Shown: positions 4,427 to 50,763, counted from the first letter of the stretch. The stretch: DNA of 64,000 nucleotides from Candidatus Brocadiia bacterium (GCA_052139675.1 JBKQWE010000026.1:2703-66702), one strand, 5' to 3'. Numbers and translations are program-made. Notes: generated by a model not told the origin, from the sequence alone.

Positions 4427-5530
4427 TTACTCTCTGCGCCCTCCAACGGATCCGGCGTACCGCCCCCAGCGCTTCGCCGTCTCGTACATGGCCAGGACAT
4501 TTTCCAGCGGAGTGTTGTCCTGGATCGCATGCGTCGGTGCATAACAGTATCCGCCGCCGGGCATCATGATGTCAAGCGTCTCGCGGCAAGTCCGCACGAC
4601 GTCGTCCACCGTCCCGAAGGCGAGCGGCCCGGCGGTGGAAATGCACCCGTGAAAGGCCAGCCGTCCGCCGAACCGCTTCTTGAGATAAGCCGGCGCCATG
4701 TCCTTCGCCTCCGGCTGCAGGGTGTCCACGGCGCGGATGCCCATGGCGATGAAGTCCTCGTAAGCCCAACTGCTCGACCCGCACGTGTGCATCATGATGG
4801 GGACGTCGTAAGCCTTGGCCAGGTCGCAGAACGGCTGGAACCGCGGGCGGATGTGCTTGCGGAACGTGGCCATGCTGATGATCGGGCCGATCTGCGTGCC
4901 CAGATCCTCGCCCAGGAAGATGAAATCCACCGCGCCGCCGGCCTTCTCCAGGATTCGCGCGGTCACCTCGATCTGCAGTTTCATCCGGCGGTCGGCCAGC
5001 AGCAATCCGGCGGGCTCATCCGTGACGAGGTCAATCAACGTCTGCTCCATGCCGCGCAGGAACCCGTTGCCGTTGATGATGTCGCCGAAGCCGCCCGCGC
5101 CGTTGAGGCCGTACTCCCGGTACGTCTTGCACTGGGCCGGGATCGTGCTGTAATCGTAGTCGTCCGCCGTCGGCAGCGGCCACGCGGCGACGGCTTCCTC
5201 GTCGGCGCTTCGCAGCGGGAAATCGCAGTAGTCCCAGTAACTGCCGCTGTCGTGCTCGATGCAGCGGGTGTGGATTCCCCAGACCGGGTCCACGTGCCGT
5301 CCGGGCAATTCCGCATGGAGCCGAGGTCCGGCATACGCGGCGCCGACGTGCCGGAAGTCCACTCCCAGGGCGCGCCGAAGCCCTTCATCGTCGTCTGGCT
5401 TCAGGCCGAAGTGGGTCTTGAGCCGGCGATCTATGCCGGGGTTGCTGGTATAGTCAATGGGCACACGGTCGGCCTCCTGGCAGGCCAGCGCCAGGCGAAC
5501 GCGCTCCTTGGACGTCAGGGACTTGCCCAT
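4427..5530 (-). CDS. uroporphyrinogen decarboxylase (URO-D) family protein (MtaA/CmuA-like fold)
   Basis: Length and motifs (RVPIDYTSNPG, LGTQIGPIISMATFRKHIRP, MMHTCGSS) fit the URO-D / methylcobamide methyltransferase superfamily. A paralog lies at 35891..37051. Confidence 0.6.
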   Translation of the reverse strand: MGKSLTSKERVRLALACQEADRVPIDYTSNPGIDRRLKTHFGLKPDDDEGLRRALGVDFRHVGAAYAGPRLHAELPGRHVDPVWGIHTRCIEHDSGSYWDYCDFPLRSADEEAVAAWPLPTADDYDYSTIPAQCKTYREYGLNGAGGFGDIINGNGFLRGMEQTLIDLVTDEPAGLLLADRRMKLQIEVTARILEKAGGAVDFIFLGEDLGTQIGPIISMATFRKHIRPRFQPFCDLAKAYDVPIMMHTCGSSSWAYEDFIAMGIRAVDTLQPEAKDMAPAYLKKRFGGRLAFHGCISTAGPLAFGTVDDVVRTCRETLDIMMPGGGYCYAPTHAIQDNTPLENVLAMYETAKRWGRYAGSVGGRRE

Positions 5531-5590: not shown

Positions 5591-7024
5591 CTACCGCAAA
5601 CCCTGCTTGCCGCCCAGCTCCGACTGGAGCATGAGATAGTACGCCACGCTGGTCAGCTCGCCCCAGCCATCCGGGTCCTGGGTGGCCTCGAAGTATTTCT
5701 GAATCTCGACGTCATAAGGCGCCAGCGAGGCCCACATGCGCAGAGTTTGGACCTTCGTGTCCTTGTCGGTGGCGAGCGTCACCTGGGCCGCCTGCGCGCC
5801 CTTGAGCTGGACGACGATCTTGCCCTGTTTCGCTTTATCGTTCCACTGCACGCTGACCACCGTGCCGTTCAAGGCGCCGGGGCCGGCGGAGATCGGCTCT
5901 GCGGTCATCGAGTTCGGGAAGCAGGCGCTGATCTCTTTCGCCGTGCCGCTGGAAGGCAGGACCGAGATCTCCATTCCGGCCGCCGGAGCGCCGGGACTGA
6001 CTCCCGCCCAGGCGGTCTTGGCGGTGGCGATCAGGCGGGCGATGTCGGCCTTGTCGAAGACCAGGCCATGCTCGTACCCGGCGACGATGCCGAGCGTGTC
6101 GAGCTGGTAATAGCCGCTGTTGGGATGGATGAACACGCCGTGCTTGGGGCTGCCGTCGGCCTTGTAATCCCACGGACCGGCCGGCTGATTGTAGTTCCAA
6201 ATCTCGTAGGTGCCATCGCTCTTCGGCGTCATCCGGCTCTTCATCACCTTGAACCACCGCTCCGCGTGCTCCTTGTATTCGGGCTTGCCGGTCACGTCCC
6301 ACATCGCGAGCATCCAGCGGGCCACCTCGTTCGCCTTGTTGTTCGGGTGCGAGGCGCCGTGCCCGGGATTGTTCCGGGTGTCGAAATCAACCCACTTCTT
6401 GTTGGTCGGGTCCAGCCCATAGGGCATGACCACGGACATCAGCCCGCCGTCCTTGGTCTCGCGCCAGCCGCCGCGCTTCGCCCATTTCTGGTAGAGCTGC
6501 TCGGCGAGCTTGAGGTAGCTCTCGCCCTTCGCGCCGTACTTTTCCTTCAACGCAGGGTTCCTGATCATCTCGCCGGCCATGAGGACGATCGGTCGGAAGA
6601 CCATGGCGTCGCTCAGCATGCTGTCGGCGTTGTAGTCGTCCATGTGATCCACCCAGGTGCCGGACGCCCCGACGCCGGGCCATCCGAGGAAGCCGTCCGG
6701 CTCCTTGATGGCGCGCTTGATGAGGGAGTCCGACCAGTCCACCATCAAGTCCACGTACTTGGTGTTATGGGTGGCCATGTAGCCGTAGTAGAAACCCTCC
6801 ATGACCGGCGTCATCGCCCAGGCGATGTCCTCGCCCATGGCCCGGTCGCACGTGCGGTAGCCCCTGGCTTCGCCGGAGATATTCTTGTCCCAGCGCGCGA
6901 GCCATTCCTTCTGCTTCGCCGAGTCCATCTTCGTGAGCGTCATGGCCGGAGGCGCAGTCTGCGCCTGGCAGACAACCGCCGCCAGCACAAGCCCGGCGGC
7001 GCACAACCCAATCATCTTCTTCAC
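5591..7024 (-). CDS. secreted protein, uncharacterised family (copy P1 of 6; possible alpha/alpha-toroid glycoside-hydrolase/lyase-like)
   Basis: GTG start with a signal peptide (MKKMIGLCAAGLVLAAVVCQAQTA). Shares about 60-80% identity with copies P2 and P3, which are tandemly downstream. Confidence 0.7.
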   Translation of the reverse strand: MKKMIGLCAAGLVLAAVVCQAQTAPPAMTLTKMDSAKQKEWLARWDKNISGEARGYRTCDRAMGEDIAWAMTPVMEGFYYGYMATHNTKYVDLMVDWSDSLIKRAIKEPDGFLGWPGVGASGTWVDHMDDYNADSMLSDAMVFRPIVLMAGEMIRNPALKEKYGAKGESYLKLAEQLYQKWAKRGGWRETKDGGLMSVVMPYGLDPTNKKWVDFDTRNNPGHGASHPNNKANEVARWMLAMWDVTGKPEYKEHAERWFKVMKSRMTPKSDGTYEIWNYNQPAGPWDYKADGSPKHGVFIHPNSGYYQLDTLGIVAGYEHGLVFDKADIARLIATAKTAWAGVSPGAPAAGMEISVLPSSGTAKEISACFPNSMTAEPISAGPGALNGTVVSVQWNDKAKQGKIVVQLKGAQAAQVTLATDKDTKVQTLRMWASLAPYDVEIQKYFEATQDPDGWGELTSVAYYLMLQSELGGKQGLR

Positions 7025-7094
7025 GTTTTCTTCTCCTGTCGTTCAATGACCGCTCGCAGGGAAACGATCCCCGCGGCGAATTCCGCGGCAAACC

Positions 7095-8519
7095 CTACTT
7101 AGCGGCCAGTTCCGCCTGGAGCATGAGATAGTGCGGCGTCTCGCTGAGGCCGCTCCAGCCATCCGGCGCCTCGGTCGCCTCATAGTTCTTCTGAATCTCG
7201 ACGTCATAGGGGACCAGCCCGTGCCACATCCGCAGGAGCTGGACCTTCGTGTCCTTGTCGGTGGCGAGCGTCACCTGGGCCGCCTGCGCGTCCTTGGGCT
7301 GGACGACGATTTTGCCCTGTTTCGCTTTATCGTCCCACTGCACGCTGACCACCGTGCCGCTCAAGGCGTCCGGGCCGGCGGAGAGCGGTTCCGAGGTCAA
7401 CGAGTTCGGGAAGCAGGCGTTGATCGCTTTCGCCGTGCCGGCCGGCTGGACCAAAACCGCCATCCCGGTCATCGCGCTGCCGGGACTGCCGTCCATCCAA
7501 CTGGTCTTGGCGGTGGCGGCCAGGCGAGCGATGTCCGCCTGGGTGAAGACCACGCCGTGCTCGTATGCGGCGACGATGGCGCGCGTGTCGCCCCAGTAAT
7601 ACCCGCCGTTGGGATGGACGCCGATCCAGTGCTTGGGGCTGCCGTCGGGCTTGTAATCCCACGGGCCGGCCGGCTGCCAATAGTTCCAGATCTCGTAAGT
7701 GCCGTCGCTCTTGGTCTTCATCCGGCTCTTCTGCACCTTGAACCACCGCTCCGCGTGGTCCTTGTATTCCGGCTTGCCGGTCACGTCCCACATCGCCAGC
7801 ATCCAGCGGGCGACCTCGTTCGCCTTGTTGTCGGGGTGCGAGGCGCCGTGGCCGGGAGCGTTCCTCGTGTCGTAACCGATCCACTTCGTGTTGGCCTGGT
7901 CCATGCCGTAGGGCATGACCACGGAGATCAATCCGCCGTTTCCGGTCTCCCGCCAGCCGCCGCGCTTCACCCACTTCTCGTAGAGCTGCTCGGAGAGCTT
8001 GATATAGCTCTCGCCTTTCGCGCCGTACTTCTCCTTCAGCGCGGGGTTCTTGATCATCTCGCCGGCCAGCAACACGATCGGGCGGAACACCATGGCCTCG
8101 CTGAGCATGCTGTCGGCGTTCCAGTCGTCCAGGTTGTCCACCCAACTGCCGGCCGCGCCTTTCGAGGGCCAGCCGACGAAGCCGTCCGGCTCCTTCACGG
8201 CGCGCTTGATGAGCGAGTCCGCCCAGTCCACCATCATGTCCACGTACTTGGTGTCATGGGTGGCCATGTAGCCATAGCAGTAGCCGTCCATGATGGGCGT
8301 CATTCCCCAGGCGATGCCTTCGCCCATTTCGCGGTCGCACGTGCGGTAGCCCTTGGATTCGCCGGAGATCTCCTTGTCCCAGAGGGTGAGCCACTCCTTT
8401 TGCTTCGCCGCGTCCATCTTCACGAGCGTCATGGCCGGGTTCAACGCCGTCTGCGCCTGGCAGAGCGCCGCCGCGAGCACAATGCCGGCGGAGCACAGCC
8501 CGATCATCGCCTTCTTCAC
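7095..8519 (-). CDS. secreted protein, same family (copy P2)
   Basis: By homology to P1 the start is GTG at 8519 (VKKAMIGLCSAG signal peptide) with a GGAGAGG ribosome-binding site. The longer track ORF reaching 8654 would overlap P3 and is taken as a shadow extension. Confidence 0.65.
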   Translation of the reverse strand: MKKAMIGLCSAGIVLAAALCQAQTALNPAMTLVKMDAAKQKEWLTLWDKEISGESKGYRTCDREMGEGIAWGMTPIMDGYCYGYMATHDTKYVDMMVDWADSLIKRAVKEPDGFVGWPSKGAAGSWVDNLDDWNADSMLSEAMVFRPIVLLAGEMIKNPALKEKYGAKGESYIKLSEQLYEKWVKRGGWRETGNGGLISVVMPYGMDQANTKWIGYDTRNAPGHGASHPDNKANEVARWMLAMWDVTGKPEYKDHAERWFKVQKSRMKTKSDGTYEIWNYWQPAGPWDYKPDGSPKHWIGVHPNGGYYWGDTRAIVAAYEHGVVFTQADIARLAATAKTSWMDGSPGSAMTGMAVLVQPAGTAKAINACFPNSLTSEPLSAGPDALSGTVVSVQWDDKAKQGKIVVQPKDAQAAQVTLATDKDTKVQLLRMWHGLVPYDVEIQKNYEATEAPDGWSGLSETPHYLMLQAELAAK

Positions 8520-8589
8520 GTTTTCCTCTCCTGTCGTTCCATGGCCGCGCGCAAGGAAACGATCCCTGCGTCGAATCCCGCGGGAAAGC

Positions 8590-9741
8590 CTACTTGCCGG
8601 CCAGCTTCGCCTGGAGCATGAGATAGTAGGACAGGCCCAGCCCGCCCCAGCCATCCGGGTTCGCGCTTGCCTCGAAGTGCTTCTGGATCTCGACGTCGTA
8701 GGGAGCCAGCGCGGACCACAGCCGGTTTGTTTTCTTGGCGGTGGCGATCAGGCGGGCGATGTCGGCCTTGTCGAAGACCAGGCCATGCTCGTAGGCGGCG
8801 ACGATGGCCGTGGTGTCAATCTGGTAATACCCGCCGTTGGGATGGACGCCCACCCAGTGCTTGGTGCTGCCGTCCGGCTTGTAATCCCACGGGCCGGCCG
8901 GCTGATGGTAGTTCCAAATCTCGTAGGTGCCATCGTCCTTGACCGGCATCCGGCTCTTCATCAGCTTGAACCATTTCTCCGCGTGTTCCTTGTATTCCGG
9001 CTTGCCCGTCACGTCCCACATGGCGAGCATCCACATGGCGACCTCGTTGGCCTTGTTGTCGGGGTGCGAGAATCCGTGACCGGGATCGTTCCTGGTGTCA
9101 TAACCGATCCACTTCGTGCGGGTCGGGTCCAAGCCATAGGGCAGGACCACGGAGATCATCCCGCCGTCCTTGGTCTCCCGCCAGCCGCCGCGCGCCGCCC
9201 ACTTGGCGTAGAGCTGCTCGGCGAACTTGAGGTAGCTCTCGCCTTTCGCGCCGTACTTCTCCTTGAGCGCCGGGTTCTTGATCATCTCGCCGGCCATCAG
9301 GACGATCGGGCGGAACACCATCGCGTCGCTGAGCATACTGTCGGCATCGAAGGTCTTATCCAGGTTGTCCACGTCGGTGCCGGCCGCCGCGAATGAGGGC
9401 CAGCCGAAGTAGCCGTCGGGCTCCTTCACGGCCCGCTTGATCAAGTGGTCCGTCCAGTCCACGAGCATGTCCACGTACTTGGTGTTTTTCGTGGCCATGT
9501 AGCCGTAGTACAAACCGTCCACGACGCCCGTCATCTTCCACGCGATGTCCTCGCCCACGGCGCTTTCGCAGACGCGATAGCCTTTGACCTCGCCGGAGAT
9601 ATTCTTGTCCCATCGGGCGAGCCAGTCTTTTTGCTTCGCCTCGTCCATCTTCGTGAGCGTCATGGCCGGAGGCGTGGTCTGCGCCTGGCAGACAGCCGCC
9701 AGCACAAGCCCGGCGACGCACAGCCCAATCGTCTTCTTCAT
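8590..9741 (-). CDS. secreted protein, same family (copy P3; lacks the ~95-aa C-proximal insertion present in P1/P2)
   Basis: ATG at 9741 (MKKTIGLCVAG) preceded by GGAGGAGGAA. Clean in-frame junction KKTNRLWSALAPYD where P1/P2 carry an extra beta-rich segment. Confidence 0.65.
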   Translation of the reverse strand: MKKTIGLCVAGLVLAAVCQAQTTPPAMTLTKMDEAKQKDWLARWDKNISGEVKGYRVCESAVGEDIAWKMTGVVDGLYYGYMATKNTKYVDMLVDWTDHLIKRAVKEPDGYFGWPSFAAAGTDVDNLDKTFDADSMLSDAMVFRPIVLMAGEMIKNPALKEKYGAKGESYLKFAEQLYAKWAARGGWRETKDGGMISVVLPYGLDPTRTKWIGYDTRNDPGHGFSHPDNKANEVAMWMLAMWDVTGKPEYKEHAEKWFKLMKSRMPVKDDGTYEIWNYHQPAGPWDYKPDGSTKHWVGVHPNGGYYQIDTTAIVAAYEHGLVFDKADIARLIATAKKTNRLWSALAPYDVEIQKHFEASANPDGWGGLGLSYYLMLQAKLAGK

Positions 9742-9784: not shown

Positions 9785-11557
9785 TCAGAGATCGTACCCT
9801 TGAGCCTGCTTCGCGCCCAGAGTATCAACCACCTCGATGCCTTCGACCTTCACGTCCTTTCGCCCGGCCAGGTCAATCCCGCTCTCGCGCACCACTGTCT
9901 CGAAGAGGTGCAGCCGCGGATCGCCGCCGGTCTTCACCGTGATCCGTTTGGCCGCAGCGTCGTACGTGAACTCGCTCCACGGCTTCCCGTCGCGGAGCAG
10001 TTTCTTCGGTTCGGCGGAGAGCGGCGCCCACCACGTCTTGTCCTCGCGCGTCCAGCCGGCGACTTCGTCCGCGCCGCTGATCGTCACCTTCTCATCCTTC
10101 ATCGCGCGGATCGTCACGCCGTCGCTCGCCGGCCGAAGCGTCTCGCGGTACACGCCGTCGCGGAGCAGGATCGTCTCGCCCTGCTGCGCTATCGCGCACG
10201 CCTTGGAGGCCGTCGCCAGCGGCACGCCCGGATAGCCCCACGCGGGCTCATCCGCCGCCGCCGGATGGCGCGGGTCCACGTACCAGACGTTGGGCCATTC
10301 CATGGCCCCGACCGTGATGCCGCCCTTGCCCGCGCCGATGGCCGGGCTGCCCTGGCGCAGGCGGAAATCGCGCTTCTGCGGATCCACGAAGAGCGGGTCC
10401 TTGCCGTTGATGTTCGTCGCGCCGTCCAGCGCCCGGGTCTCATATGTCAGGTTGTACTCGATCAGCGGCTTGGACGGCGTAATCTTCTTATCGGTATCCA
10501 CGACGGCTCGCTCGGCGTCGCAGAGGATATTGTCGCGGATCTGCCCGTTAGTGGATTCCGCGCCGCACAGGCCGATGCACGACCAGCGCACCGTGGAGAT
10601 CGTGCAGTTCTCGATCGTCACGTCGAGCGCCTGCATAATGCACGGGCCCCAGCCTCCGCTCAGGTACTTCGGCGACCCGTTGGTGCAATAGATGTTGTGC
10701 CGGAAGGTCAGGTACCGCACGCTGCCGATGTGCGGAGCGCTTTCCACCATGCAGCCCTGGTGAAAATCGAAGCAGGTGTTGTACTCGAAGAGCAGGTCCT
10801 TCGCGATCTCGCCGTTGTCCGTGAACGTCTGGATGCAATCCACGTGGGCGGGCCCGATTTCACTCTGGCTGCTGCCGTGGTAGTAGTTGTACCGCTCCAC
10901 GCAGCCCTGGCCGAAGAACCGCGTGTAGTCGCAGTCGCCGTACGGCGGATACGTCCAGAGCCGGCACACCTCGTTATTCTCCTCGACCCAGTCGTTCCCG
11001 CCCATCATGAAGCCGAAGTCACTGTGGTAGACTTTGTTATAGGCGATCCGGTTGTGCGACACCGCGGAGAAATCCCGCATGCCGTCGGCGCCGACCTTGC
11101 CTCCGGTCCCACCGACACCGATCCCCATGTCGTGGATATAGTTGTCCAGCACCTCGCAGTAACTCCCGCCCAGCTCCACCGCCACGGCGGATTTCGGGGC
11201 CGTGATCTCGAAGCCGGCCACGCGGACGTAACTGGCCGGCACGTCGAACCCGTTCACAATGGCCGACCGCCGCGGCATGGCCTGGAACGTGATCGGCTTG
11301 CCCTTCGAGCCGCTGGTCTTGAGCTCGACCCGCTCTTCATACCGGCCCGCCATAACAAAGACGGTGTCGCCGGGCTTGACCAGGTCGGCCGCGCGCTGAA
11401 CCGTCTTGAACGGGCTCTCTTCCGCGCCGGAGTTCGTGTCGGCCGCGCCGGGCGCCGCCTGGTCCACCACGTACACGGACGCGCGCGACTCGCGCCCGAG
11501 CAGCGAGATCGCCGACAGCACAACCAGGCAGAACGGGCTCCATAGCGCAACCTTCAT
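9785..11557 (-). CDS. secreted right-handed parallel beta-helix protein (pectate-lyase-fold; two DUF1565-like N-terminal modules)
   Basis: Signal peptide. Duplicated motif YVVDQAAPGAADTNSGAEESPFKTVQRAADLVKPGDTVFVMAGRY and WYVDPRHPAAADEPAWGYPGVPLATASKACAIAQQGETILLRDGVY. Cys- and Asn-rich helix coils. 4-nt overlap with the upstream gene. Confidence 0.6.
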   Translation of the reverse strand: MKVALWSPFCLVVLSAISLLGRESRASVYVVDQAAPGAADTNSGAEESPFKTVQRAADLVKPGDTVFVMAGRYEERVELKTSGSKGKPITFQAMPRRSAIVNGFDVPASYVRVAGFEITAPKSAVAVELGGSYCEVLDNYIHDMGIGVGGTGGKVGADGMRDFSAVSHNRIAYNKVYHSDFGFMMGGNDWVEENNEVCRLWTYPPYGDCDYTRFFGQGCVERYNYYHGSSQSEIGPAHVDCIQTFTDNGEIAKDLLFEYNTCFDFHQGCMVESAPHIGSVRYLTFRHNIYCTNGSPKYLSGGWGPCIMQALDVTIENCTISTVRWSCIGLCGAESTNGQIRDNILCDAERAVVDTDKKITPSKPLIEYNLTYETRALDGATNINGKDPLFVDPQKRDFRLRQGSPAIGAGKGGITVGAMEWPNVWYVDPRHPAAADEPAWGYPGVPLATASKACAIAQQGETILLRDGVYRETLRPASDGVTIRAMKDEKVTISGADEVAGWTREDKTWWAPLSAEPKKLLRDGKPWSEFTYDAAAKRITVKTGGDPRLHLFETVVRESGIDLAGRKDVKVEGIEVVDTLGAKQAQGYDL

Positions 11558-12924: not shown

Positions 12925-12942
12925 ACAGAATTGCGACGGATA

Positions 12943-14034
12943 TTACACCACGTCCTGGGATCGCAGGGCTTCGAGCATGCTGAATCCCGACCCCGCGAGG
13001 ATGACTCTGCTCATTGTGAAACCCGCTGCGGCGAGGAGGGCGCGATACTCGGCTTCGCTGCGCTCGCGTCCGCCGGTGAGCGCGAGCATTTGCAAGTCCA
13101 CCAGGATTGTGCCGGGATCGTCCGCCGCCCGCGCCGGCAGAATGCGCTCGATAAGGAGCAGGCGGGTGCGCTCTCCGAGGGCTCTGTGACAATTCCTGAG
13201 TATGGCGAGGGCATGCTCGTCGTCCCAGTCGTGGATGATGCTCTTGAGGATAAGAACATCCGCGCCGTCGGGAACGCGGTCAAAGAAATTTCCCTCGACG
13301 AGCCGGCACCGCGCGGCCACGCCCTTTGACTCCAGGCAGGCGCGCGCGCCCGCCATGAGGCACTCGCGCTCGAAAAGAATGCCGGCAGCGGAGGGATACT
13401 TCAAGAGAACGGCGGCCAGCAGCGCTCCATGGCCTCCCCCGATGTCAGCCACGGTGCGAAACGGCGAAAAATCATAGGCGTTCAAAACGCCTTGGGCGAC
13501 CTGTTCCGTGGCCGCGGCAAGGCCGTCGCTAAAAAGGACATCCAGCTCAGGATGCTGCGCGCGGTGTTCCAATTGAGTTGCGCCGAAGACATGGCGGAAC
13601 GCCGGGTCGCCGGTCATCACGCTATGGAGCAGGCCGCCCCACGCGACGGCGTACTCCTCTCCGACCAGGATCGCCAATCCCCGGATTGACCCTGCCCTGT
13701 CGGACCGCAGTCCCGCGCCGAACTCGGTGAGGCAAAAGCGCCCATCGGGCGCCTCCGAGCACACGCCGAGCGTCACCAGGCCTTTCAGCACCCGGTGAAG
13801 CGACGGGGCGTGCGCTCCGGCCATTCGGGCCAACTCGGCGCTGCTCTGGGGACCGCCGGCAAGGGCGTCGGCCAACCCGAGTCTGGCCGCGATGTACAGC
13901 AATGCGGTATTCCGGTAGCCGTTGAGGAGATCGTGGAGCGTGGGCTGGGCAGCGCGCCGTTCGCCCTGTCGCCCGCTGATCGCTGCGGCGGCGGCGCCGA
14001 TGCGTTCCGCCAGTGCGTGAATATAATCGGACAT
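12943..14034 (-). CDS. class I SAM-dependent O-methyltransferase (COMT/plant-OMT-like, with N-terminal dimerisation domain)
   Basis: VADIGGGHG (motif I), DVLILKSIIHDWDD, LLIERILP: an O-methyltransferase family 2 signature. Confidence 0.75.
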   Translation of the reverse strand: MSDYIHALAERIGAAAAAISGRQGERRAAQPTLHDLLNGYRNTALLYIAARLGLADALAGGPQSSAELARMAGAHAPSLHRVLKGLVTLGVCSEAPDGRFCLTEFGAGLRSDRAGSIRGLAILVGEEYAVAWGGLLHSVMTGDPAFRHVFGATQLEHRAQHPELDVLFSDGLAAATEQVAQGVLNAYDFSPFRTVADIGGGHGALLAAVLLKYPSAAGILFERECLMAGARACLESKGVAARCRLVEGNFFDRVPDGADVLILKSIIHDWDDEHALAILRNCHRALGERTRLLLIERILPARAADDPGTILVDLQMLALTGGRERSEAEYRALLAAAGFTMSRVILAGSGFSMLEALRSQDVV

Positions 14035-14061
14035 TGTCGCTCGTCCTGCTTCCTGCGCGAA

Positions 14062-28485: not shown

Positions 28486-28487
28486 GG

Positions 28488-35890: not shown

Positions 35891-37051
35891 TCAGGAGGCA
35901 TCGTAACGGCCCTTCTCCAGCGCCGCCTTATACATCGCCGCCAGGTTCTCCTCGGGCACGCGCGGCGGAAGGTTGTTGGCTTCAGTGAGGATGAATCGCC
36001 CGCCGGTCTTGATCCCGCTTTCCAGGATCTCGCAGGTGCGATCGTAGACCTGCTGCGGCGTGCCGTGGAGCAGCAGCATGATGCCCGGGCCGCCGTTGAT
36101 CTGCACGCCGGGGCCGAGTTCCCTGCGCATGCGGGCGAAATCAACCGGAAAGCCGCTGTCCCACGTCTGGACGTTCAGCTCGTCGCGCAGGGTCTTCATG
36201 TGACGCATAACGTCGCCGCACAGGTGAATCCCGCGCGGCTTATCGGGGGCGAATTCATCCAGGTAGCGCTGGTGCCGCGGCATGACCATCCGCTTGTACA
36301 TGGCCGTGCTGATGAGCTGGATGGAATCATCGGCCAGCCCGCCGCCGAGGCTTTCGTCGTTCCAGTATTTCCGCCAGGCGCGCACCCGCTTGATGGCGGC
36401 GTCGGTCAGGTAGTCGAGCAACCGTTCGGCGTACTCCGGGTCCTCGGCCATGTCCGTCATCATGTCCGTCCCGCGCAGGTTCATGCCCGTCGTCAAAGGC
36501 CCGTCGGTGCCGGCCTGGTCGTACCGGCCGACCTTCACGGGCCGACCTTGAAATATATAGTCCTTCGCGATCTTGCCCATCTCCTCATAGAACCGCAGGC
36601 CGCGCCTGGAGAGCGGATTTTCGATCGGCCGGTCAATGTCCACGGCGAAGATGCTTTCCTTATTGGCGGCGGTGAGGAACGGCTGAGTATCGGGAATCTG
36701 GCCTTCGCGGAAATGCCACGCGGCGCCGAAGAAGGCCGCCTCGTGCGTGTTCAGCCAGCTCACCGAGGCGGTCCACTGATCCGGCAGGCCCGTCGGCGAA
36801 TCGCAATAGCGGTTGATCACCGTGCGGCGAAGGTGCTCGTGGTCGAGCGCGGCTTCCATCATCACGCGCGGATCATTGAAGATTTGCTCGAAAGTCACGC
36901 CGCTGCGGTTGAGCTTCGGGTCGAGCACAACGATGCGCGCGTTGCTGGAGATGGACACCGGCACGCGGATCGGCTTGCGCTCATTGAAGGCCTTCCAGAC
37001 GGCTTCCTTCTCGGCATTGCTGATCTGCGGAATTTCCCAAGACATTGTCAT
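35891..37051 (-). CDS. URO-D family protein (second copy; uroporphyrinogen decarboxylase / MtaA-like fold)
   Basis: TIM-barrel URO-D-like motifs (RVPVSISSN, GTDGPLTTGMNLRG, IHLCGD). Immediately downstream of secreted-family copy P5, mirroring the P1 and 4427..5530 arrangement. Confidence 0.55.
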   Translation of the reverse strand: MTMSWEIPQISNAEKEAVWKAFNERKPIRVPVSISSNARIVVLDPKLNRSGVTFEQIFNDPRVMMEAALDHEHLRRTVINRYCDSPTGLPDQWTASVSWLNTHEAAFFGAAWHFREGQIPDTQPFLTAANKESIFAVDIDRPIENPLSRRGLRFYEEMGKIAKDYIFQGRPVKVGRYDQAGTDGPLTTGMNLRGTDMMTDMAEDPEYAERLLDYLTDAAIKRVRAWRKYWNDESLGGGLADDSIQLISTAMYKRMVMPRHQRYLDEFAPDKPRGIHLCGDVMRHMKTLRDELNVQTWDSGFPVDFARMRRELGPGVQINGGPGIMLLLHGTPQQVYDRTCEILESGIKTGGRFILTEANNLPPRVPEENLAAMYKAALEKGRYDAS

Positions 37052-42309: not shown

Positions 42310-43146
42310 TTATGCCTTTGCCTTCTTCGCCTTTCCCTTCGTCGCTTCCTTCAGCAGCTTGCGGGTGAGCTTGACGTAGACAGGGAAGGCGACTTCCGGC
42401 TCTTCCAGATCCGGTTCCCACTTCTTTTCCCACTCGAAAGACAGGTACCGGTCGTATCCGGTGCTCATGATCAGCGCGAGCAGTTTCTTCAGGTCCAACT
42501 GGCCGGTGCCGGGCAGCTTGCTCTTGATCTTCCCGTCCACCATGGCGGCGTCCTTGAAGTGGACGTGCATGAGGCAATCGCGGAGGGCGGCGCAGGTGAT
42601 CTCCGGCGCTTCCGAGAAGTAGCCGTTGGCCGCGTCCCAGCAGGCGCCGACCCGCGGCGAGCCGACGGAGGCGATGAGGGCCTTCAGTCGAGCCCCGTTC
42701 GTCCAGTCGTCGTGCGTCTCCAGCGCGATGTTGACGCCGGTCTTCTCGGCAGCCCCGGCCACGCGCTTCACGCCTTCCGCCACGCGCGCCATGTTGGCCT
42801 TCTCGTCGAGCTGCTTGGAGAACACGCCGCCGAACAGCCGCAGCGTCGGGCAGCCGATGTCCTTCGCGGTCTCCAGGAAGCATTGCGCGAGCCGGATGCT
42901 CTCCTTGAGCTTGGCCGGATCGTCCATCGTGAAGCTGCTGTAGCCCATGATGGCGGCGATCTGGATGCCTTGCGAATCGAAGAGCTTGCGGATGCGCGCG
43001 CGCTCCGCAGGCGTCTCCTCCGGGCCGATGTGCTCGCCGGCGACGCCGCGCAGCTCGACGCCGTCGAAACCCATCGCCTTCGCGTTTGCGGCAATCTGCT
43101 CGAGCGTCCACTTGGGACATCCGAGCGTGGCAAAAGAAAGTTTCAT
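42310..43146 (-). CDS. sugar phosphate isomerase/epimerase (xylose-isomerase-like TIM barrel)
   Basis: Start MKLSFATLG. GFDGVEL, NIALETHDDWTNG and YDRYLSFEWE metal-site motifs. Confidence 0.75.
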   Translation of the reverse strand: MKLSFATLGCPKWTLEQIAANAKAMGFDGVELRGVAGEHIGPEETPAERARIRKLFDSQGIQIAAIMGYSSFTMDDPAKLKESIRLAQCFLETAKDIGCPTLRLFGGVFSKQLDEKANMARVAEGVKRVAGAAEKTGVNIALETHDDWTNGARLKALIASVGSPRVGACWDAANGYFSEAPEITCAALRDCLMHVHFKDAAMVDGKIKSKLPGTGQLDLKKLLALIMSTGYDRYLSFEWEKKWEPDLEEPEVAFPVYVKLTRKLLKEATKGKAKKAKA

Positions 43147-44922: not shown

Positions 44923-46335
44923 TCACTGCGTGTAGCCGAGGCTCTTCAGTTGTCTGAGCAGCTCCGGATCCGGTTCATTCGCTTTCCCCGTATTGACCTT
45001 GGCAATTGAGGTCGGCCCCGTCGTCAAGGCTCGGAGTGCGGCCTCCGGACAGGCTTTCTTCAGGTCCGCGCCGGCGACGACCTTTTCGCGGTCGCCTGTC
45101 ACCTCTTCCAGTTGGGCTTCGGCAAGCGTTCCCGGCGTGCCCAAAAGCTTGTGATGGTCCCATCGAACCGCTCTCAAGTTACACTCAAACTCCGCCAGCT
45201 CGCTGTAGATCAGGCGCTCGGGGACCGGCTTGTCGCTCAGAATCATGGGCGACAGGTCAATCCCTTGAATCTTCGAGGGGCACGGCAGTTGGAGAAGCCC
45301 CAGCGCCGTCGGCATCAGGTCAACATGGCTGACGTTTCCGGCCACGCGCTTGCCGGCCGGGATGACACCCGGCAGCCGCATGATCAGCGGCGCGTGCAGT
45401 TCCTCTTCGTACAGGCTGTTGCCGTGGTAGAGCAGGCCATGTTCAAGAAATGCCTCGCCGTGATCGGACAAAACGATCACCAGCGTCTTCCCGGAAATCC
45501 CCAGGTCCTGAAGGAGTTGAAGGATCTTGCCGACATGCTCGTCCGTGAAGGCGATTCCCCCGTCGTAAAGAGCCTCCATATGCGCCAGGTCCCTGATCGA
45601 GATCCGCGACATGAGATCGTCTCGCTTCGCGCGCTGCATGATGGCGCGGCCGTTCTCCCGGCCTTTGTAATCGGGGTCGAATTTCCTGTCGAAGGGCGCG
45701 GGCGGATAATAGTCGCTATGGCAGTCCCAATAGTGCAGGAAGAGGAAGAAGTTCTCCCGGGAATGCTTCTTGAGCCATTCCGTGGCCAGATCCGTAATCA
45801 CGGGATTCCTGCGGACTGGGGGGGCGCGTAAAGCCGTCATCTTCAAGACCGTGAAGTCGTCATATGATTTGAAGCCGCGGTCGAATCCGAAGTGGTGATC
45901 CAGCGAGGGACCATTGATGAAGGCCTGCGTCAAGTATCCGATTTTGGCCAGACACTGCGCCAGCGTCGGAACGCCTTCGCCCAGTTGACTGCGAATGGTC
46001 TCCACGCCGTGGACGCTGGGATAAAGGGAGGTGAACATGCTCATGTGCGACGGCACCGTCCAGGACGACGCCGAGGTCAAGTTCTCAAAAAGGACCCCTT
46101 CCCTGGCCAGTTGGTCGAGATGGGGCGAGGTGTCCTGGTTATAGCCGTAGCATTTCAGGTGGTCGGCGCGCAGGGTATCTATCGAGATGATCAGCAGATT
46201 ATACTTGATCGGCGGCGGCGGCGCGGCGGGGCGCCGACAGTCAAGGCCGATGAAGGAAATCAACACCAGGCAGCACAGAAAGCCTCGGACGCAACGCGAG
46301 GCAAGCCCGGAAGATGCCGCTTGGGTGCGCATCAT
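44923..46335 (-). CDS. sulfatase-fold (alkaline-phosphatase superfamily, PF00884-like) membrane-anchored enzyme with Thr at the nucleophile position; probably a hydrolase/transferase, not a true sulfatase
   Basis: Start MMRTQAASSGLASRCVRGFLCCLVLISF (N-terminal anchor). ISIDTLRADHL...SASSWTVPSHMSMFTSLYP aligns to sulfatase C-x-P-x-R but reads T-V-P-S-H. Confidence 0.7.
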   Translation of the reverse strand: MMRTQAASSGLASRCVRGFLCCLVLISFIGLDCRRPAAPPPPIKYNLLIISIDTLRADHLKCYGYNQDTSPHLDQLAREGVLFENLTSASSWTVPSHMSMFTSLYPSVHGVETIRSQLGEGVPTLAQCLAKIGYLTQAFINGPSLDHHFGFDRGFKSYDDFTVLKMTALRAPPVRRNPVITDLATEWLKKHSRENFFLFLHYWDCHSDYYPPAPFDRKFDPDYKGRENGRAIMQRAKRDDLMSRISIRDLAHMEALYDGGIAFTDEHVGKILQLLQDLGISGKTLVIVLSDHGEAFLEHGLLYHGNSLYEEELHAPLIMRLPGVIPAGKRVAGNVSHVDLMPTALGLLQLPCPSKIQGIDLSPMILSDKPVPERLIYSELAEFECNLRAVRWDHHKLLGTPGTLAEAQLEEVTGDREKVVAGADLKKACPEAALRALTTGPTSIAKVNTGKANEPDPELLRQLKSLGYTQ

Positions 46336-46636
46336 CGAGAAGCACTCCGATACTTCAGATTGACGGAGGCCGCCCAGACCAGACGCTCCGAAGGCAGCCG
46401 GCGCCGCCAACGGGATGACTTTACCACAAGGAACTAACCGCCGCAATGGTTCCGGCCGCGGGCGACCGAAGTTCCCGCAGCCTTTTCGGCAAAGCTCAGG
46501 CGATTGTCCCGATGTTTTTTCGTTGCCGTTTGGTATTCCGCGAAGTAGAATGCCGCGGAGTCGGGCGACGTGGCCACCGGCCGGCCGCCGGTCCGGGAAA
46601 TCATCCGACGGGTGTTATAACAGTGAGGGAACGGCC

Positions 46637-47104
46637 ATGACGACGGAAGAGCGGCTGGAGAAAGTGGAGAAGGAATCGGCCGCAGCGAAGCGGCAGCTTC
46701 GACGGCTGATGATCGGCGGGCCGATCGGGCTGGCATGCGTCGCAGTCCTCCTGGCGCTGTGGGCGCGGCCGGCGGAGGTGCAGGCGCGAAAATTCGTCCT
46801 GCTCGACGAGAACGGCAAGACTCGCGCCCTGCTGGCCATGGAGGAGTTCGGGCCGAGGCTGAGCCTGGCCGACGCGCAAGGCAAGACCCGCGCCGCGCTG
46901 TGCGTGGCGAAGACCGGGCCGGTGTTGAACCTGTCCGACATGAACGGCACCGCCCGCGCCGGCCTCGCCGTGCTGAAGGATGGGCCGGTGCTGAACCTGG
47001 ACTATGGGAACGGCAAGACCCGCGCCCTGCTGGCCGTGGAAGAGGGCGGACCGGGCATGCGGTTGTACGACGGGAACGACAAGATCCTCTGGTCCGCGCC
47101 GTAA
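46637..47104 (+). CDS. small membrane-anchored tandem-repeat protein (4.5 x ~22-aa repeats, xNGKTRAxLAVxxxGPxLNLxD)
   Basis: GAGGGAA ribosome-binding site before ATG 46637. N-terminal hydrophobic helix, then DENGKTRALLAMEEFGPRLSLA / DAQGKTRAALCVAKTGPVLNLS / DMNGTARAGLAVLKDGPVLNLD / YGNGKTRALLAVEEGGPGMRLY / DGNDKILW. Confidence 0.5.
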   Translation: MTTEERLEKVEKESAAAKRQLRRLMIGGPIGLACVAVLLALWARPAEVQARKFVLLDENGKTRALLAMEEFGPRLSLADAQGKTRAALCVAKTGPVLNLSDMNGTARAGLAVLKDGPVLNLDYGNGKTRALLAVEEGGPGMRLYDGNDKILWSAP

Positions 47105-47141
47105 CGGTCGCGAGAACGGCGGCAGGGAACCCTTCCATCCT

Positions 47142-48580
47142 TCACTGGGTGTAGCCGAGGCTCTTCAGCCGGCCGATGAGTTCCGCATCCGATTCATCCG
47201 ATTTCCCCGCATGGGCCGTGGAGATCGAAGGCGGGCCCTCTGTGAAGGCTCGGAGCGTCGCTTCCGGACAGGCTTTCTTCAGGCCCGTCCAGTCGGCAAT
47301 GACCTTCTCGCGGCCGCCGGCCACTTCTTCCAATTGGGCGCCGGCCAGTGTTCCCATCGTGCCCAGGAGCTTGCGATTGCCCCAGCGAACCGCTCTCAAG
47401 TTAAGCCCGCTGAACGTCATCTCGCTGTAGATCAGGCGCTCGGGAACCGCCTGATCGCCCAGGATCATCGGCGACAGGTCAATCCCTTGCATCTGCGCGG
47501 GGCCCCTCAGATGAAGGAGCCCCAGCGCCGTCGGCATCAAGTCAACGTGGCTGATATTTCCGGCCACGCGCTTGCCGGCCGGGATCACGCCCGGCAGCCG
47601 CATGATCAGAGGGACGTGAAGCAGCTCTTCGTACAGGCTGTTGCCGTGGCGAAGCTTGCCGTGCTCGAGGAATGCCTCGCCGTGATCGGATAGAACGATC
47701 ACCAGCGTCCTCTCGGAAATCCCCAGGTCCTGGAGCAGTTGAAGGATCCTGCCGACGTGCTCGTCCGTGTGGGCGATTTCCCCATCGTAGAGAGCCATCA
47801 TGTGCGCCAGGTCCATGACCGAGATATACTTCAGGATGTCTCGCTCGCGCTCGAAGACACGGCGGCCATTCTCTGCACCCTGGTAGCCGGGGTCGAATTT
47901 CCTGTCGTAGGGCGCGGGCGGAACATAGTCGTAATGGCAGTCCCAATAGTGCAGGAAGAGGAAGAAATTCTCGCGGGAATGCTTCTTGAGCCATTGTGTG
48001 GCCAGATTCGTGATCACAGGATTCGTGACGACCCGGTCAAGCCTGCCGCTGTCCTGCAGCGCCGCTGCTCCCGGTTCCTCGAACGTCAGGCCGACTGTGA
48101 AATCATCATAGAAACGGAAGCCGCGGTTGAATCCGTAGCGGTGGTTCAGCGGCGGCCCCGTGACGAACGCCGCGGTCACATATCCGCTTTGGGCAAGGCA
48201 CTGCGCCAGGGTCGGAACGCCTTCGCCCAGCTTATTATCGAAGTCCTGCACGCCGTGGACGCTGGGATAAAGCGAGGTGAACATGCTCATGTGCGACGGC
48301 ACCGTCCAGGACGACGCCGCGGTCAGATTCTCAAAAAGGGTCCCTTCCCTGGCCAGTTGATCGAGATGAGGCGAGGTGTCCCGGTCGTAGCCGTAGCATG
48401 TCAGGTGATCGGCGCGGCAGGTATCTATTGAGATGAGGAGAAGGTTGTACCTGGGCGCCGGCGGCGGCTCCGCCGCGCAGACGGTCAGGGTGGACAGACA
48501 GCAGACCAGGATCAGGCCGGCCAGAACGCAGCCGGCCGCTCGCAAAAGACCGCCGACGCGCCTAAAACATCGGCTTCCCA
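47142..48580 (-). CDS. sulfatase-fold enzyme, paralog of 44923..46335 (Thr nucleophile position)
   Basis: Start MGSRCFRRVGGLLRAAGCVLAGLILV. Same TSPHLDQLAREGTLFENLTAASSWTVPSHMSMFTSLYP motif. Its 5' end overlaps the stop of the upstream gene by 19 nt. Confidence 0.7.
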
Positions 48581-50763
48581 TCCAAGCCCTCGGGCAGCGG
48601 GACATTGAACGCGCGCAGGATCGTCGGGGCGATGTCCACCAGGGACGGCGATTGGGCGGTGCAGTGCACGTTGCTGACGAACGTGCCCGGCACGCACGGG
48701 GCATCCACGAGATGATCGCCGTCCCACGATTCGTTGTTCGCCACCACGGCGGCGCCCGCCGGGCCGGCGCCCACGGCCGTCTGCCACGAGGCGCGGTAAC
48801 CGGGGTGATAGCCCATGATCAAGTCGGGCGCTTCCTCGACGCATTCACCCTTGTACACGTCTTCCTTCCGGTACACGTTGCGCACCACCGGCTTGCCCGT
48901 GTCCGGATCGTTCCACGCGCGGAGTTTCCGCACCAGCTCGTCCTGGAGCTGCCGCGCCTCTTCGCCGCGCTGCACGATGCCCTGCCCGTCGCGCCCGGCG
49001 ATGTTCAGGTACAGGCTGCAGAATCCCACGGCGTAGGCTTTGGTCCTCGACCAGTCCACGTTCTTCAGGAGCGGCGCTTCTTCGGCGTCGTCGGAATCTT
49101 TAAGGTGCATGTACCCGTTCTGGATGAGCCAGCGGTTCAGATGGACGGCGCGGAGGAAGCTCGTGAAGCCGTGGTCGGAGAGGACGAAAATCGCCGTGTC
49201 CTTGTCCACCTTCGCCAGCGCCCTGCCGAGGACGGCGTCCATCCGCTTGTAGTGCTCGATAATCGCCGGCGCGGAACTGGTCTCGGTGGGCGGCCGCGTG
49301 CGGGCGGCGTCATCGTCCTCCCAATACATGTGCTCGATCCGGTCGCTCGTGTCGAAGACGATGGCCAGCAGGCCCTTGTCGAACTTCTTCAGTTCCAGGT
49401 CGAACATCGCCTCGCGCTCGGTCGTGAGCCGATCGCACAACTGCAGGAACGCCGTCGAAGGAATGCGCCCGTGCAGGACGGCCTGCGTGTCCTCGGGCAT
49501 GCCGAGCGTGGAGAACGAGCCGATGGCCCGCGCCAGGTCGCCGGCGCCGCCGGCCGGGTGGCTGATCGGGAACGCGGGGTTCTTCGGGTCAATCTGGGGC
49601 GCGGTGGCGTAGAGCTTCAAGTCCGGCTCCAGGCTCACCAGATAAAACCGCACCATCGCCGGGCAGTCGCGCGAGATGCCGCCCGGGAAGGAGATGGAAA
49701 GGTAGTCCGACCATTGTCCCGGCGCCAGGTCCAGCGGGTCGTTCTTTCCGCAGCGCAGCGTGATTTTCTGCTGCTCGGGGACGCGCTGGATGCTCAGGGG
49801 AACGGCGCTGGTCTTCTGGCCGGTGAACCCCATGACCAGCGGGCCGGGGATTTCCGTCTGGATAGCCGACCCGTTCCACGTCACCTCCACGACGCGGTCG
49901 GGGGCCTTGTCGTCGGCGGCGAGGGGCGCCGTGGTGAAAAAGGCGTAACGGCCCAAAGAGCCGGTCACGTCGGGCGTGCCCAGGCCGCTCAGCAAGCTGC
50001 CGTTGACCGGCTGCGCGGGGAAAGTCACCGGCCAGCGCAGGACCACCGTCGGGATGCCCTGTGCGCCCAGGATGTCCCAGAACGCCTTCTGCGCGGAGGG
50101 AAGAACATACGGCTGGCCGGATCGCCGCCAGGAGCCTTTGGTGGAAGTCTTCAGGATCGAGAGGTCCGGCAGATAGTTCTCGGGGTTGCGGCGGATGTAA
50201 TCGAAAAGGCCGTGCCGGCCGGGGTTCATGCCGGTCGCGGCGGACATCCACGCCACCGGGCTCTCGGGCGGAATCGCCGTCTGCAGCGTCGAGAACGTCC
50301 CTTCGCGCGCGAGCTTGGCGAAATTGGGCATGCGGCCGTCGTCCATCATGCGCTCGACCAGCCGCGGGTCCAGCCCGTCAATGCCGATCACGATCACCCG
50401 TTTGTACGCCACCTCGCTCCCTTTCGTTGCCAGCGCAACCGACGCACGCCCACGATGCTCGACCAGCCCAAACCCCAGGACAAGCAGGCCGCAACCGACC
50501 GCGATCAGCGCGATGGTGCGGCCCTTCATTTTCCTGATTGCCGGGAACTTCCTCCAGAAGCCCGTGACGCGCAGCACCACCGCCCAGAACAGAAAGAACA
50601 CGGCGGAGACGCACCCGATAATGATCCCGATGATAGGGCCCAGGCTGCTCCAGACCTGCTGCGCGGTGCCCGGATCAATGTAGGCGAAGGCGCTCGGCGC
50701 GCCGAGAATTGCCATCAGGAGGATGGTCAGCATCAGTTTCACTCGAAGGCCGCGCGGGCGCAT
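48562..50763 (-). CDS. membrane-anchored alkaline-phosphatase-superfamily enzyme, type I phosphodiesterase / nucleotide pyrophosphatase (NPP) family
   Basis: True start ATG 50763 ([21 protein letters not shown]), sharing 1 nt with the cysN stop (TGATG). Three N-terminal transmembrane helices, then VIVIGIDGLDPRLVERMMDDGRMPNFAKLAREGTF...HGLFDY, a PF01663-like core. Confidence 0.65.
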   Translation of the reverse strand: MRPRGLRVKLMLTILLMAILGAPSAFAYIDPGTAQQVWSSLGPIIGIIIGCVSAVFFLFWAVVLRVTGFWRKFPAIRKMKGRTIALIAVGCGLLVLGFGLVEHRGRASVALATKGSEVAYKRVIVIGIDGLDPRLVERMMDDGRMPNFAKLAREGTFSTLQTAIPPESPVAWMSAATGMNPGRHGLFDYIRRNPENYLPDLSILKTSTKGSWRRSGQPYVLPSAQKAFWDILGAQGIPTVVLRWPVTFPAQPVNGSLLSGLGTPDVTGSLGRYAFFTTAPLAADDKAPDRVVEVTWNGSAIQTEIPGPLVMGFTGQKTSAVPLSIQRVPEQQKITLRCGKNDPLDLAPGQWSDYLSISFPGGISRDCPAMVRFYLVSLEPDLKLYATAPQIDPKNPAFPISHPAGGAGDLARAIGSFSTLGMPEDTQAVLHGRIPSTAFLQLCDRLTTEREAMFDLELKKFDKGLLAIVFDTSDRIEHMYWEDDDAARTRPPTETSSAPAIIEHYKRMDAVLGRALAKVDKDTAIFVLSDHGFTSFLRAVHLNRWLIQNGYMHLKDSDDAEEAPLLKNVDWSRTKAYAVGFCSLYLNIAGRDGQGIVQRGEEARQLQDELVRKLRAWNDPDTGKPVVRNVYRKEDVYKGECVEEAPDLIMGYHPGYRASWQTAVGAGPAGAAVVANNESWDGDHLVDAPCVPGTFVSNVHCTAQSPSLVDIAPTILRAFNVPLPEGLDGKPMF

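Follow-up and report, generated by a model that had tools for sequence, protein, structure and literature searches.

A widespread, undescribed family of exported, probably glycan-active (alpha/alpha)6 proteins in a peat-bog planctomycete

The window analyzed here, a 64,000-nucleotide stretch of DNA from a Candidatus Brocadiia bacterium, contains six paralogous genes, P1 to P6 (Table 1), whose host is a peat-bog planctomycete. As a previous sequence-only reading had proposed, P1, P2, and P3 are direct neighbors and three more divergent copies lie farther away; the latter constitute a separate subfamily (B), with P1–P3 forming subfamily A. Proteins P4–P6 share 71–75% amino acid identity among themselves and 46–52% with P1–P3 (P1 vs. 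P4, BLASTP E=6e-114). The motifs quoted earlier for the family were found in the proteins, as were the N-terminal signal-like sequences, i.e., hydrophobic segments that were called by eye and from a low-pLDDT N-terminal helix. A GAAAGGG-type ribosome-binding site had been ascribed to all six genes, but it is present only in P4–P6, whereas P1–P3 carry AGGAG-type sites. The P2 open reading frame was over-extended to 8654 in the ORF listing, and its GTG start was taken at 8519.

Table 1. Paralogs of the family and their neighbors in the window
Feature	Position	Strand	Description
P1	5591..7024	minus	477 aa, GTG start; subfamily A, long form; signal-like N-terminus, predicted (alpha/alpha)6 barrel, inserted beta domain
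P1 inserted beta domain	5744..6016	minus	spans residues 337-427; sits between helices 9 and 10 of the barrel
P2	7095..8519	minus	474 aa, GTG start; subfamily A, long form; insert domain 7236-7505
P3	8590..9741	minus	383 aa; subfamily A, short form; domain lost, with the junction between nt 8734 and 8733
P4	21151..22425	minus	424 aa; subfamily B; 31-aa loop (21292-21384) replaces domain
P5	37087..38325	minus	412 aa; subfamily B; loop 37225-37317
P6	43443..44717	minus	424 aa; subfamily B; loop 43596-43682
DUF1565/right-handed beta-helix protein	9785..11557	minus	PF07602, PF13229; signal-like N-terminus; 43 nt upstream of P3
URO-D-like (MtaA-like) cytoplasmic protein	4427..5530	minus	PF01208; PDB 4ay7 E=2e-4; 60 nt downstream of P1
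Second URO-D-like protein	35891..37051	minus	PF01208 E=2e-20; 35 nt downstream of P5
AP_endonuc_2 (xylose-isomerase-like TIM barrel)	42310..43146	minus	PF01261; downstream of P6, no signal peptide
Two sulfatases (44923-46446, 47142-48704) flanking a 234-aa ORF	44923..48704	minus	PF00884; directly upstream of P6

A related MAG, Ca. Brocadiia SPRUCE 14, encodes an ortholog of each of P1–P3 at 93–94% identity (93% at the nucleotide level for P2), while the three paralogs show only 81–84% DNA identity, with longest identical runs of 60, 51, and 32 nt. In a quartet test against the SPRUCE 14 orthologs, 110–140 informative sites supported orthology vs. 3–5. These values contradict the earlier suggestion of recent duplication or gene conversion. 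Conversion was rejected because almost no quartet sites speak for it; a hint, limited to the N-terminal 170 nt, was seen relative to the lineage of a more distant relative, L001, which has no P2. The dN/dS values of the orthologs (0.10–0.24) indicate that all three copies are maintained. The tandem paralogs may represent old specificity variants, each of them conserved, rather than redundant recent copies. The paralogy itself, comprising old tandem duplicates and a domain loss, is ordinary.

The sole hypervariable element of the proteins is the loop between helices 9 and 10, located on the same face as the other long loops. Its length is 5–6 aa in P3, 29–31 aa in P4–P6, and 91 aa in P1 and P2, and the corresponding short, medium, and long classes (S, M, and L) comprise 59, 124, and 58 of 241 family members. 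In P1 and P2 (residues 339–428 of the latter) the insert is a small SH3/KOW-like beta barrel with no known relative. The sequence-only reading had noted that P3 lacks a beta-rich segment of ~95 aa through an in-frame junction at ~8722–8740; this was confirmed, the missing domain being 91 aa long and the junction clean. An assembly artefact, considered earlier as a possible cause, was ruled out, since the identical junction (IATAK|KT[N/D]R) recurs in independent assemblies: it is shared with orthologs in two of them (oS in L001 and S3 in L009) and occurs in all 13 of the 13 clade A short forms. The insert could act as a lid or an extra subsite tuning the length or type of the substrate.

None of the six proteins matched a Pfam or NCBIfam model above threshold, and neither single proteins nor profiles had a match among PDB sequences. 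All homologs from an iterated search, whose profile included relatives at 20–26% identity, are annotated as 'hypothetical protein'; the earlier statement that the family could not be assigned was thus substantiated. Literature searches yielded nothing relevant on a matching new GH family or on a link between URO-D proteins and planctomycete glycans. The family had also been described as six-membered and specific to this lineage. Both descriptions were too narrow: it comprises ~830 clusters at 50% identity in Planctomycetota, Verrucomicrobiota, and Armatimonadota, with 182 loci in GTDB species representatives of several phyla, and SPRUCE 14 (~92% DNA identity to the species of the window) carries at least 18 copies. 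Some extracellular relatives are fused to a BD-FAE/Abhydrolase_3 esterase and others to surface domains (InlB B-repeat and Big_5).

Structure prediction gave a high-confidence barrel of ~11 helices of the (alpha/alpha)6 six-hairpin type. The long inter-helix loops all follow helices 1, 3, 5, 7, and 9, and therefore all lie on one face. The barrel resembles that of enzymes cleaving sugar chains, but no described enzyme family was matched. Conservation in at least 95% of the 241 members was found for approximately 80 positions, including eight acidic and eight basic residues that cluster on the long-loop face; nearly all of these positions fall in the long loops or adjoining helix ends. They include the acidic residues E65, D99, E108, D110, D134, D286, and D309, as well as K180, R184, R188, R264, H295, H300, Y305, Y306, and 16 Trp; H319 is, like H295 and H300, an invariant histidine. 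D110 and D286 are retained even in relatives of only 20–26% identity. Putative catalytic residues were selected from conservation and helix topology. The long-loop face would form a sugar-binding catalytic pocket, in which carboxylates like the conserved D110 and D286 may perform the chemistry and the many conserved Arg and Lys may bind an anionic substrate.

The six-hairpin fold is also used by proteins other than glycosidases, including epimerases, lyases, terpene cyclases, and LanC. Proteins of the family might be non-catalytic glycan-binding or structural components of the envelope, or their substrate might be something other than a carbohydrate (a terpenoid or a peptide, as for the cyclases and LanC). 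That no known family's catalytic motif is kept would fit such roles, and the high copy number with a variable surface loop would fit a binding protein as well. We regard this reading as highly improbable, since the degree of conservation and the charged residues on the long-loop face resemble an active site and not a binding surface, and since the export signal, the esterase fusion, and the carbohydrate-gene neighborhoods favor glycan chemistry.

Concerning these neighborhoods, the sequence-only reading had placed the genes among beta-helix, heparinase-like, and sulfatase-fold proteins. The DUF1565 beta-helix protein and two sulfatases are indeed present, but Pfam detected no heparinase-like neighbor among the window ORFs scanned. 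The beta-helix protein is a candidate depolymerase partner, and its adjacency to the family is repeated in four other loci (L009, L011, L012, and L019). From the beta-helix gene through P3, P2, and P1 to the URO-D-like gene, the intergenic intervals contain no minus-strand terminator-like sites, and RNA structure in the 70-nt spacers was not significant (z ~ -1); P1–P3 are apparently co-transcribed with the putative depolymerase gene upstream. A sulfatase adjoins the family also in L010, and synteny comparison showed that the sulfatase block upstream of P6 is missing from the orthologous locus of SPRUCE 14. Only at a Phycisphaerae locus (L007/L008) was a Hepar_II_III-like protein found, encoded directly upstream of the family homolog. 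Downstream, the URO-D-like and xylose-isomerase-like TIM-barrel genes may supply cytoplasmic sugar processing. Pairing with the URO-D-like gene is conserved in L001 and L009; as a universal partner URO-D was rejected, as it adjoins the family only in Brocadiia relatives and is present in 9 of 83 loci. Elsewhere the commonest downstream neighbor is AP_endonuc_2 (~12 of 82 loci), and GFO/IDH/MocA genes occur nearby in 17 loci. As planctomycete genomes are in general rich in both types of genes, part of this linkage may reflect the base rate. PDB searches with two unknown neighbors (unk509 and unk456) gave no match. Overall, the neighborhoods are variable and no single partner is found in more than ~20% of loci.

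Taken together, P1–P6 probably belong to a widespread, undescribed group of exported (alpha/alpha)6 enzymes that are most likely glycan-active, with acidic poly- or oligosaccharides (bearing uronate or sulfate) as the probable substrates; they would work either in the periplasm of the planctomycete or extracellularly. As no described enzyme family was matched, they are candidates for a new carbohydrate-degrading family. A more far-reaching proposal, which we advance tentatively, is a new CAZy class-level family, either GH or lyase, that has a catalytic constellation of its own and has expanded to 18 or more copies per genome in anaerobic Planctomycetota of peatlands; the helix 9–10 module would be a swappable lid setting endo/exo mode or specificity, and the likely targets would be acidic plant or microbial polymers (for example, pectin-like Sphagnum glycans or EPS). 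The Planctomycetota and Verrucomicrobiota of peatlands and sediments are regarded as major contributors to the breakdown of recalcitrant polysaccharides, and their secreted proteome is largely unannotated. The family is large, its fold is predicted with confidence, its members are exported, one peat lineage has expanded it heavily, and sequence searches of Pfam, NCBIfam, and PDB do not detect it; once its activity is known, it would provide a missing enzyme class for carbon-turnover models and a new family for annotation pipelines. The loop classes of 5, 30, and 91 aa offer a natural test of how an inserted lid domain affects specificity.

Among the known systems with this fold, toroid polysaccharide lyases (Hepar_II_III-type, PL35, etc.) normally have a C-terminal beta-sandwich domain, which is absent from the family, and no Pfam Hepar_II_III match was obtained. 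The AGE superfamily (N-acylglucosamine 2-epimerase, cellobiose 2-epimerase, and the sulfoquinovose isomerase YihS) shows no sequence relationship to it (hhalign of A2 vs. E. coli YihS, probability 0.78%), and its enzymes are normally cytoplasmic, whereas the family has signal-like N-termini. In addition, the AGE catalytic His pair could not be aligned to the family. These differences make it rather unlikely that the proteins are lyases, epimerases, or isomerases of either type employing His/Tyr acid/base chemistry on uronate-containing substrates, although the invariant H295, H300, H319, Y305, and Y306, the many Arg and Lys residues, and weak PF07221 matches in two members (at best E 0.007) would agree with such an activity. 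For the GH76 alpha-1,6-mannanases, TM-scores reached only 0.33–0.45. Their adjacent catalytic Asp-Asp pair, inferred from the inactive PDB variants D136N/D137N and D163N/D164N, has no counterpart, as the family lacks any pair of neighboring positions with acidic residues in 90% or more of the 241 members. Two PF03663 (GH76) matches, both sub-threshold, were seen (P5, E 0.99; P0164, E 7e-4, 19.6 bits vs. the 25.9 cut-off).

The closest resemblance is to GH88/GH105 (PF07470; YteR, 1NC5; UGL, 1VD5), with which the family has in common the six-hairpin barrel, a weak but recurrent sequence similarity in helices 2–3 and the loop before helix 8, and an occasional location near lyase-like or beta-helix genes. 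Among Pfam families, PF07470 alone was matched repeatedly (21 of 43 members, sub-threshold, best E 4e-6), and the best profile match by hhalign was to an 81-sequence GH105 profile (probability 20–38%, E 3e-4 to 1e-3), aligning helices 2–3 and the Y-x-x-W-[DN]...P-W...SP-x-[FH]-W stretch. Together with the Hepar_II_III-like and beta-helix neighbors, this would suit very divergent unsaturated uronyl hydrolases downstream of a lyase, which hydrate the C4=C5 bond of the unsaturated uronate at the lyase-made non-reducing end. We consider this reading unlikely. All Pfam scores stay below the gathering score of 26.6 bits (12.9–16.5 bits in the window proteins, no match for P2) and cover only the first 40–65 model residues, or positions ~1–67 of 352 in the window proteins. 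Moreover, the GH105 catalytic Asp motif W-x-D-x-[LIVM]-[YF]-M, found in 81 of 81 GH105 sequences, is present in none of the 241 members. PDB entries 1NC5/2GH4 (YteR) and 1VD5/2AHF (UGL) served to verify the reference sequences, and D143 was identified through the 2GH4 D143N chain. This catalytic residue (D143 in YteR, D149 in UGL) is located where helix 6 starts and lies, in YteR, opposite a gap in the hhalign alignment, the equivalent helix start in the family being SHP[D/N]NKAN with position 228 split between D (23) and N (19). A second conserved Asp, D88 of both enzymes at the start of helix 4, falls with low confidence opposite the variable position 129, and would instead pair with the invariant D134 when mapped by helix order. 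With the single sequences of UGL, YteR, and YihS, hhalign probabilities were below 1% and the alignments unreliable. Compared with GH88/GH105, the putative glycan-active enzymes described here are exported, contain a variable element (loop or domain) between helices 9 and 10, and have a different conserved set, namely E65, D110, D286, K180, R184, H295, and H300.

P1-P3, the adjacent members of a secreted protein family with six copies in the window (P1-P6), appear from sequence to be an old tandem set and predicted specificity variants of a widespread, exported and uncharacterized six-hairpin family. Sequence comparison divides the six copies into two subfamilies. Subfamily A is formed by P1-P3, arranged head-to-tail in the minus-strand region 5591-9741, with 75-78% amino acid (81-84% nucleotide) identity among its members. 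Subfamily B comprises P4-P6 (71-75 and 80-82%, respectively), and the protein identity between A and B is 46-52% (P4 vs. P1, BLASTP E = 6e-114). The triplet and the further copies described in the sequence-only reading are real, their coordinates were accurate and the quoted motifs were found in the proteins. Yet the GAAAGGG ribosome-binding site ascribed to all six genes lies 5′ of P4-P6 only, while P1-P3 carry AGGAG-type sites. Each of the six N-termini has a short run of basic residues, then a hydrophobic stretch and an A-x-A-like site; the AlphaFold2 model of P1 shows this segment as a helix of low confidence, which is what a signal peptide would be expected to give. Since the 70-nt spacers P3/P2 (8520-8589) and P2/P1 (7025-7094) are homologous to each other, the duplicated unit was the gene with its spacer. 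CCGCGG-type palindromes are present in both spacers; predicted RNA folding of the spacers was no better than that of shuffles (z about -1, not significant).

Family copies, insert segments and neighboring genes in the window
Feature	Position	Strand	Remarks
URO-D-like gene	4427-5530	minus	directly downstream of P1
P1	5591-7024	minus	477 aa, GTG start
P1 insert segment	5744-6016		residues 337-427
P2	7095-8519	minus	474 aa, true start GTG; mechanical ORF extends to 8654
P2 insert segment	7236-7505		residues 339-428
P3	8590-9741	minus	383 aa
DUF1565 beta-helix protein	9785-11557	minus	first in row, before P3
P4	21151-22425	minus	family copy outside triplet
Second URO-D-like gene	35891-37051	minus	35 nt downstream of P5
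P5	37087-38325	minus	family copy outside triplet
509-aa protein, family unknown	38386-39915	minus	60 nt upstream of P5; only faint Ceramidase_alk similarity
P6	43443-44717	minus	family copy outside triplet

Recent duplication or gene conversion had been proposed for the triplet, and comparison with related genomes supported neither. At about 92-93% nucleotide identity, the window runs collinear to contig JBEKCB010000012.1 from the MAG ‘Candidatus Brocadiia bacterium SPRUCE 14’, where the same short-long-long triplet is followed by a URO-D-like gene. DNA of P1-P3 is 93-94% identical to the SPRUCE 14 positional orthologs but only 81-84% to the neighboring paralogs, and four-sequence comparisons favored orthology at 110-140 sites vs. 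within-genome exchange at 3-5. The longest identical DNA runs between paralogs (60, 51, and 32 nt) fall in conserved protein segments, and dN/dS was 0.10-0.24 for orthologs and 0.37-0.45 for paralogs. Together, these identities, site counts, run positions and dN/dS values indicate that P1, P2, and P3 have all been maintained and have diverged. The more remote relative represented by loci L001-L003 (nucleotide identity about 90%) has a short and a long copy only. As P2 is equally distant from P1 and from the long copy of this relative, it looks to predate the split from the relative and to have been lost there afterward.

P1 and P2 carry a 90-91-aa beta domain between barrel helices 9 and 10, replaced in P3 by a five- to six-residue link with the junction between nt 8734 and 8733; in P4-P6 the corresponding site is occupied by a loop of 29-31 aa. 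An assembly artifact was excluded as the source of the P3 junction, because independent assemblies share it identically. Among 241 full-length family members, the helix 9-10 link measured 0-19 aa in 59, 30-49 aa in 124 (P4-P6 among them) and 90-119 aa in 58 (including P1 and P2). In a neighbor-joining tree without bootstrap, the long forms make up a single clade with short forms nested within it, all 13 of which share a junction of the TAK-KT(N/D)R-(M/L)W type. The sister group of the medium-loop clade is another clade of short forms, whose junction differs. The nested forms and this second clade fit a history in which the P3 lineage lost the domain and the link was shortened independently at least once more elsewhere. 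Paralogy and domain loss are ordinary evolution.

On the minus strand, the beta-helix gene, P3, P2, P1 and a URO-D-like gene follow one another with gaps of 43-70 nt, and no minus-strand terminator-like sites were found within this row. P6 has a xylose-isomerase-like TIM-barrel gene downstream and two sulfatases upstream. The two URO-D-like genes are divergent, MtaA-type methyltransferase-like and cytoplasmic (PDB 4ay7, E = 2e-4), and no signal peptides were found in the URO-D-like and TIM-barrel partners. Pairing of URO-D-like genes with family copies was also observed at L001, L009, L017, and L082. One speculative idea is that they might serve to remove O-methyl groups from methylated sugars, in an organism that lives anaerobically and carries ACS/CODH. 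A protein with an ACS/CODH beta-subunit C-terminal domain is encoded at 100-1224 (plus strand), and a [FeFe]-hydrogenase large subunit with a Nuo51-like flavoprotein at 23206-27017 (minus strand). The source organism is predicted to be an anaerobe with hydrogen metabolism and possibly also metabolism of the Wood-Ljungdahl type, a context unusual for a member of ‘Brocadiia’ that is not obviously anammox. Two blocks of the window, 12844-15927 (O-methyltransferase, 287-aa unknown, Methyltransf_11 gene) and 44729-48559 (two sulfatases and a 234-aa ORF), have no counterpart on the SPRUCE 14 contig, which is collinear elsewhere, and would represent recent gains or losses in a glycan-related neighborhood. 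Near the sulfatase/phosphodiesterase block lie a CysN/EF-Tu-type GTPase, possibly a sulfate adenylyltransferase subunit (50763-52001, minus strand), and a GT87-family glycosyltransferase (52999-54225, plus strand). Homologs of the 509-aa protein occur beside or near family copies at L004/L026, L018, L019, L029, L030, L060, L065, and L082. A D12-class N6-adenine DNA methyltransferase, a 285-aa unknown and a DndB-like protein are grouped at 27316-30718 (minus strand), which may be a DNA-modification or defense island.

A word-indexed search returned 707 homologs, every one annotated as ‘hypothetical protein’, and HMMER, run exhaustively against 1.84 billion representatives, gave 830 clusters at E ≤ 1e-3 (453 at E ≤ 1e-10). 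The family had been described as specific to this lineage; among GTDB species representatives, 182 loci were detected, mainly in MAGs of peat, fen, lake-sediment, groundwater and soil origin. Most belong to Planctomycetota (Brocadiia, Phycisphaerae, Planctomycetia) and Verrucomicrobiota, some to Armatimonadota, and a few are labeled Alphaproteobacteria or Acidobacteriota. At least 18 copies occur in SPRUCE 14 alone, seven of them, all of the medium-loop type, in one tandem array (L074, contig JBEKCB010000051.1, 5206-15057). The family is thus strongly expanded in this lineage, yet not specific to it. Among about 82 non-redundant loci, 18 had an AP_endonuc_2-like gene no more than 10 kb away (as the next downstream gene in about 12), 17 had GFO/IDH/MocA genes and nine had URO-D-like genes (adjacent in Brocadiia relatives only), while the beta-helix neighbor recurred in four. 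In eight loci, labeled mostly Phycisphaerae, Sedimentisphaerales or unclassified Planctomycetota, an unannotated protein of ~700 aa is encoded immediately upstream. Six of these (L047, L052, L053, L056, L057, L062, around position 10000) hold a conserved three-gene cassette of this protein, the family member and an AP_endonuc_2-like TIM-barrel gene. This protein of ~700 aa had no Pfam match and is an uncharacterized family in its own right. In one Phycisphaerae locus, the gene immediately upstream of the family copy is heparinase II/III-like. Some relatives carry a fused BD-FAE/Abhydrolase_3 esterase, or else surface repeats of the InlB and Big_5 types. Because of these neighbors and fusions, the contexts fit carbohydrate breakdown, with no universal partner.

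The AlphaFold2 model of P1 (alignment of 43 sequences; pLDDT 90.9, pTM 0.88) has about 11 barrel helices and a seven-strand insert, in agreement with the alpha/alpha toroid guessed from sequence. Foldseek gave TM-scores of 0.33-0.45, suggesting a generic six-hairpin barrel with no known family prominent. Long loops follow helices 1, 3, 5, 7, and 9 and, judging from topology, would occupy one barrel face. Residues with a conservation of 95% or more across the 241 members gather in these loops and the adjoining helix ends: acidic E65, D99, E108, D110, D134, D286, and D309; basic or histidine R104, K180, R184, R188, R264, H295, and H300; and aromatic Y305, Y306, and 16 tryptophans. E65, W69, P109-D110-G111, K180, R184, N229, W276, D286, W296, Y305, and W431 are retained even in relatives at only 20-26% identity. 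The conserved face looks like a sugar-binding catalytic pocket, whose basic residues would suit an anionic substrate. The variable loop or domain between helices 9 and 10 shares this face and may therefore act as a lid or extra subsite.

The family had been called unassignable, and our searches bear this out: Pfam matches were all sub-threshold, and no match was obtained in NCBIfam or in PDB sequence and profile searches. Pfam GH88 (PF07470) scored 13-16.5 bits vs. a 26.6 cut-off, reaching no further than the second or third helix, with scattered weak matches to GH47, GH76 and GlcNAc-2-epimerase. As references we used YteR and UGL (100% identical to PDB 1NC5 and 1VD5), with catalytic residues marked by the mutant chains D143N (2GH4) and D88N (2AHF), and an 81-sequence GH105 profile, for which 80 genes were gathered from metagenomes. 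Profile-profile alignment with GH105 (probability 20-38%, E 3e-4 to 1e-3) covered helices 2-3 and a stretch before helix 8, with catalytic D143 in a gap. The motif W-x-D-x-[LIVM]-[YF]-M was present in 81 of 81 GH105 sequences but in none of the 241 family members. The GH76-type adjacent acidic pair is not conserved either, and Escherichia coli YihS gave an hhalign probability of 0.8%. Given the weak profile match, the gap at D143 and the missing motif, the family would be related to GH88/GH105 only very distantly, if at all, and lacks their catalytic signature. Its members are most likely enzymes that act on glycans with their own catalytic set, and the family is a reasonable candidate for addition to CAZy as a new one.
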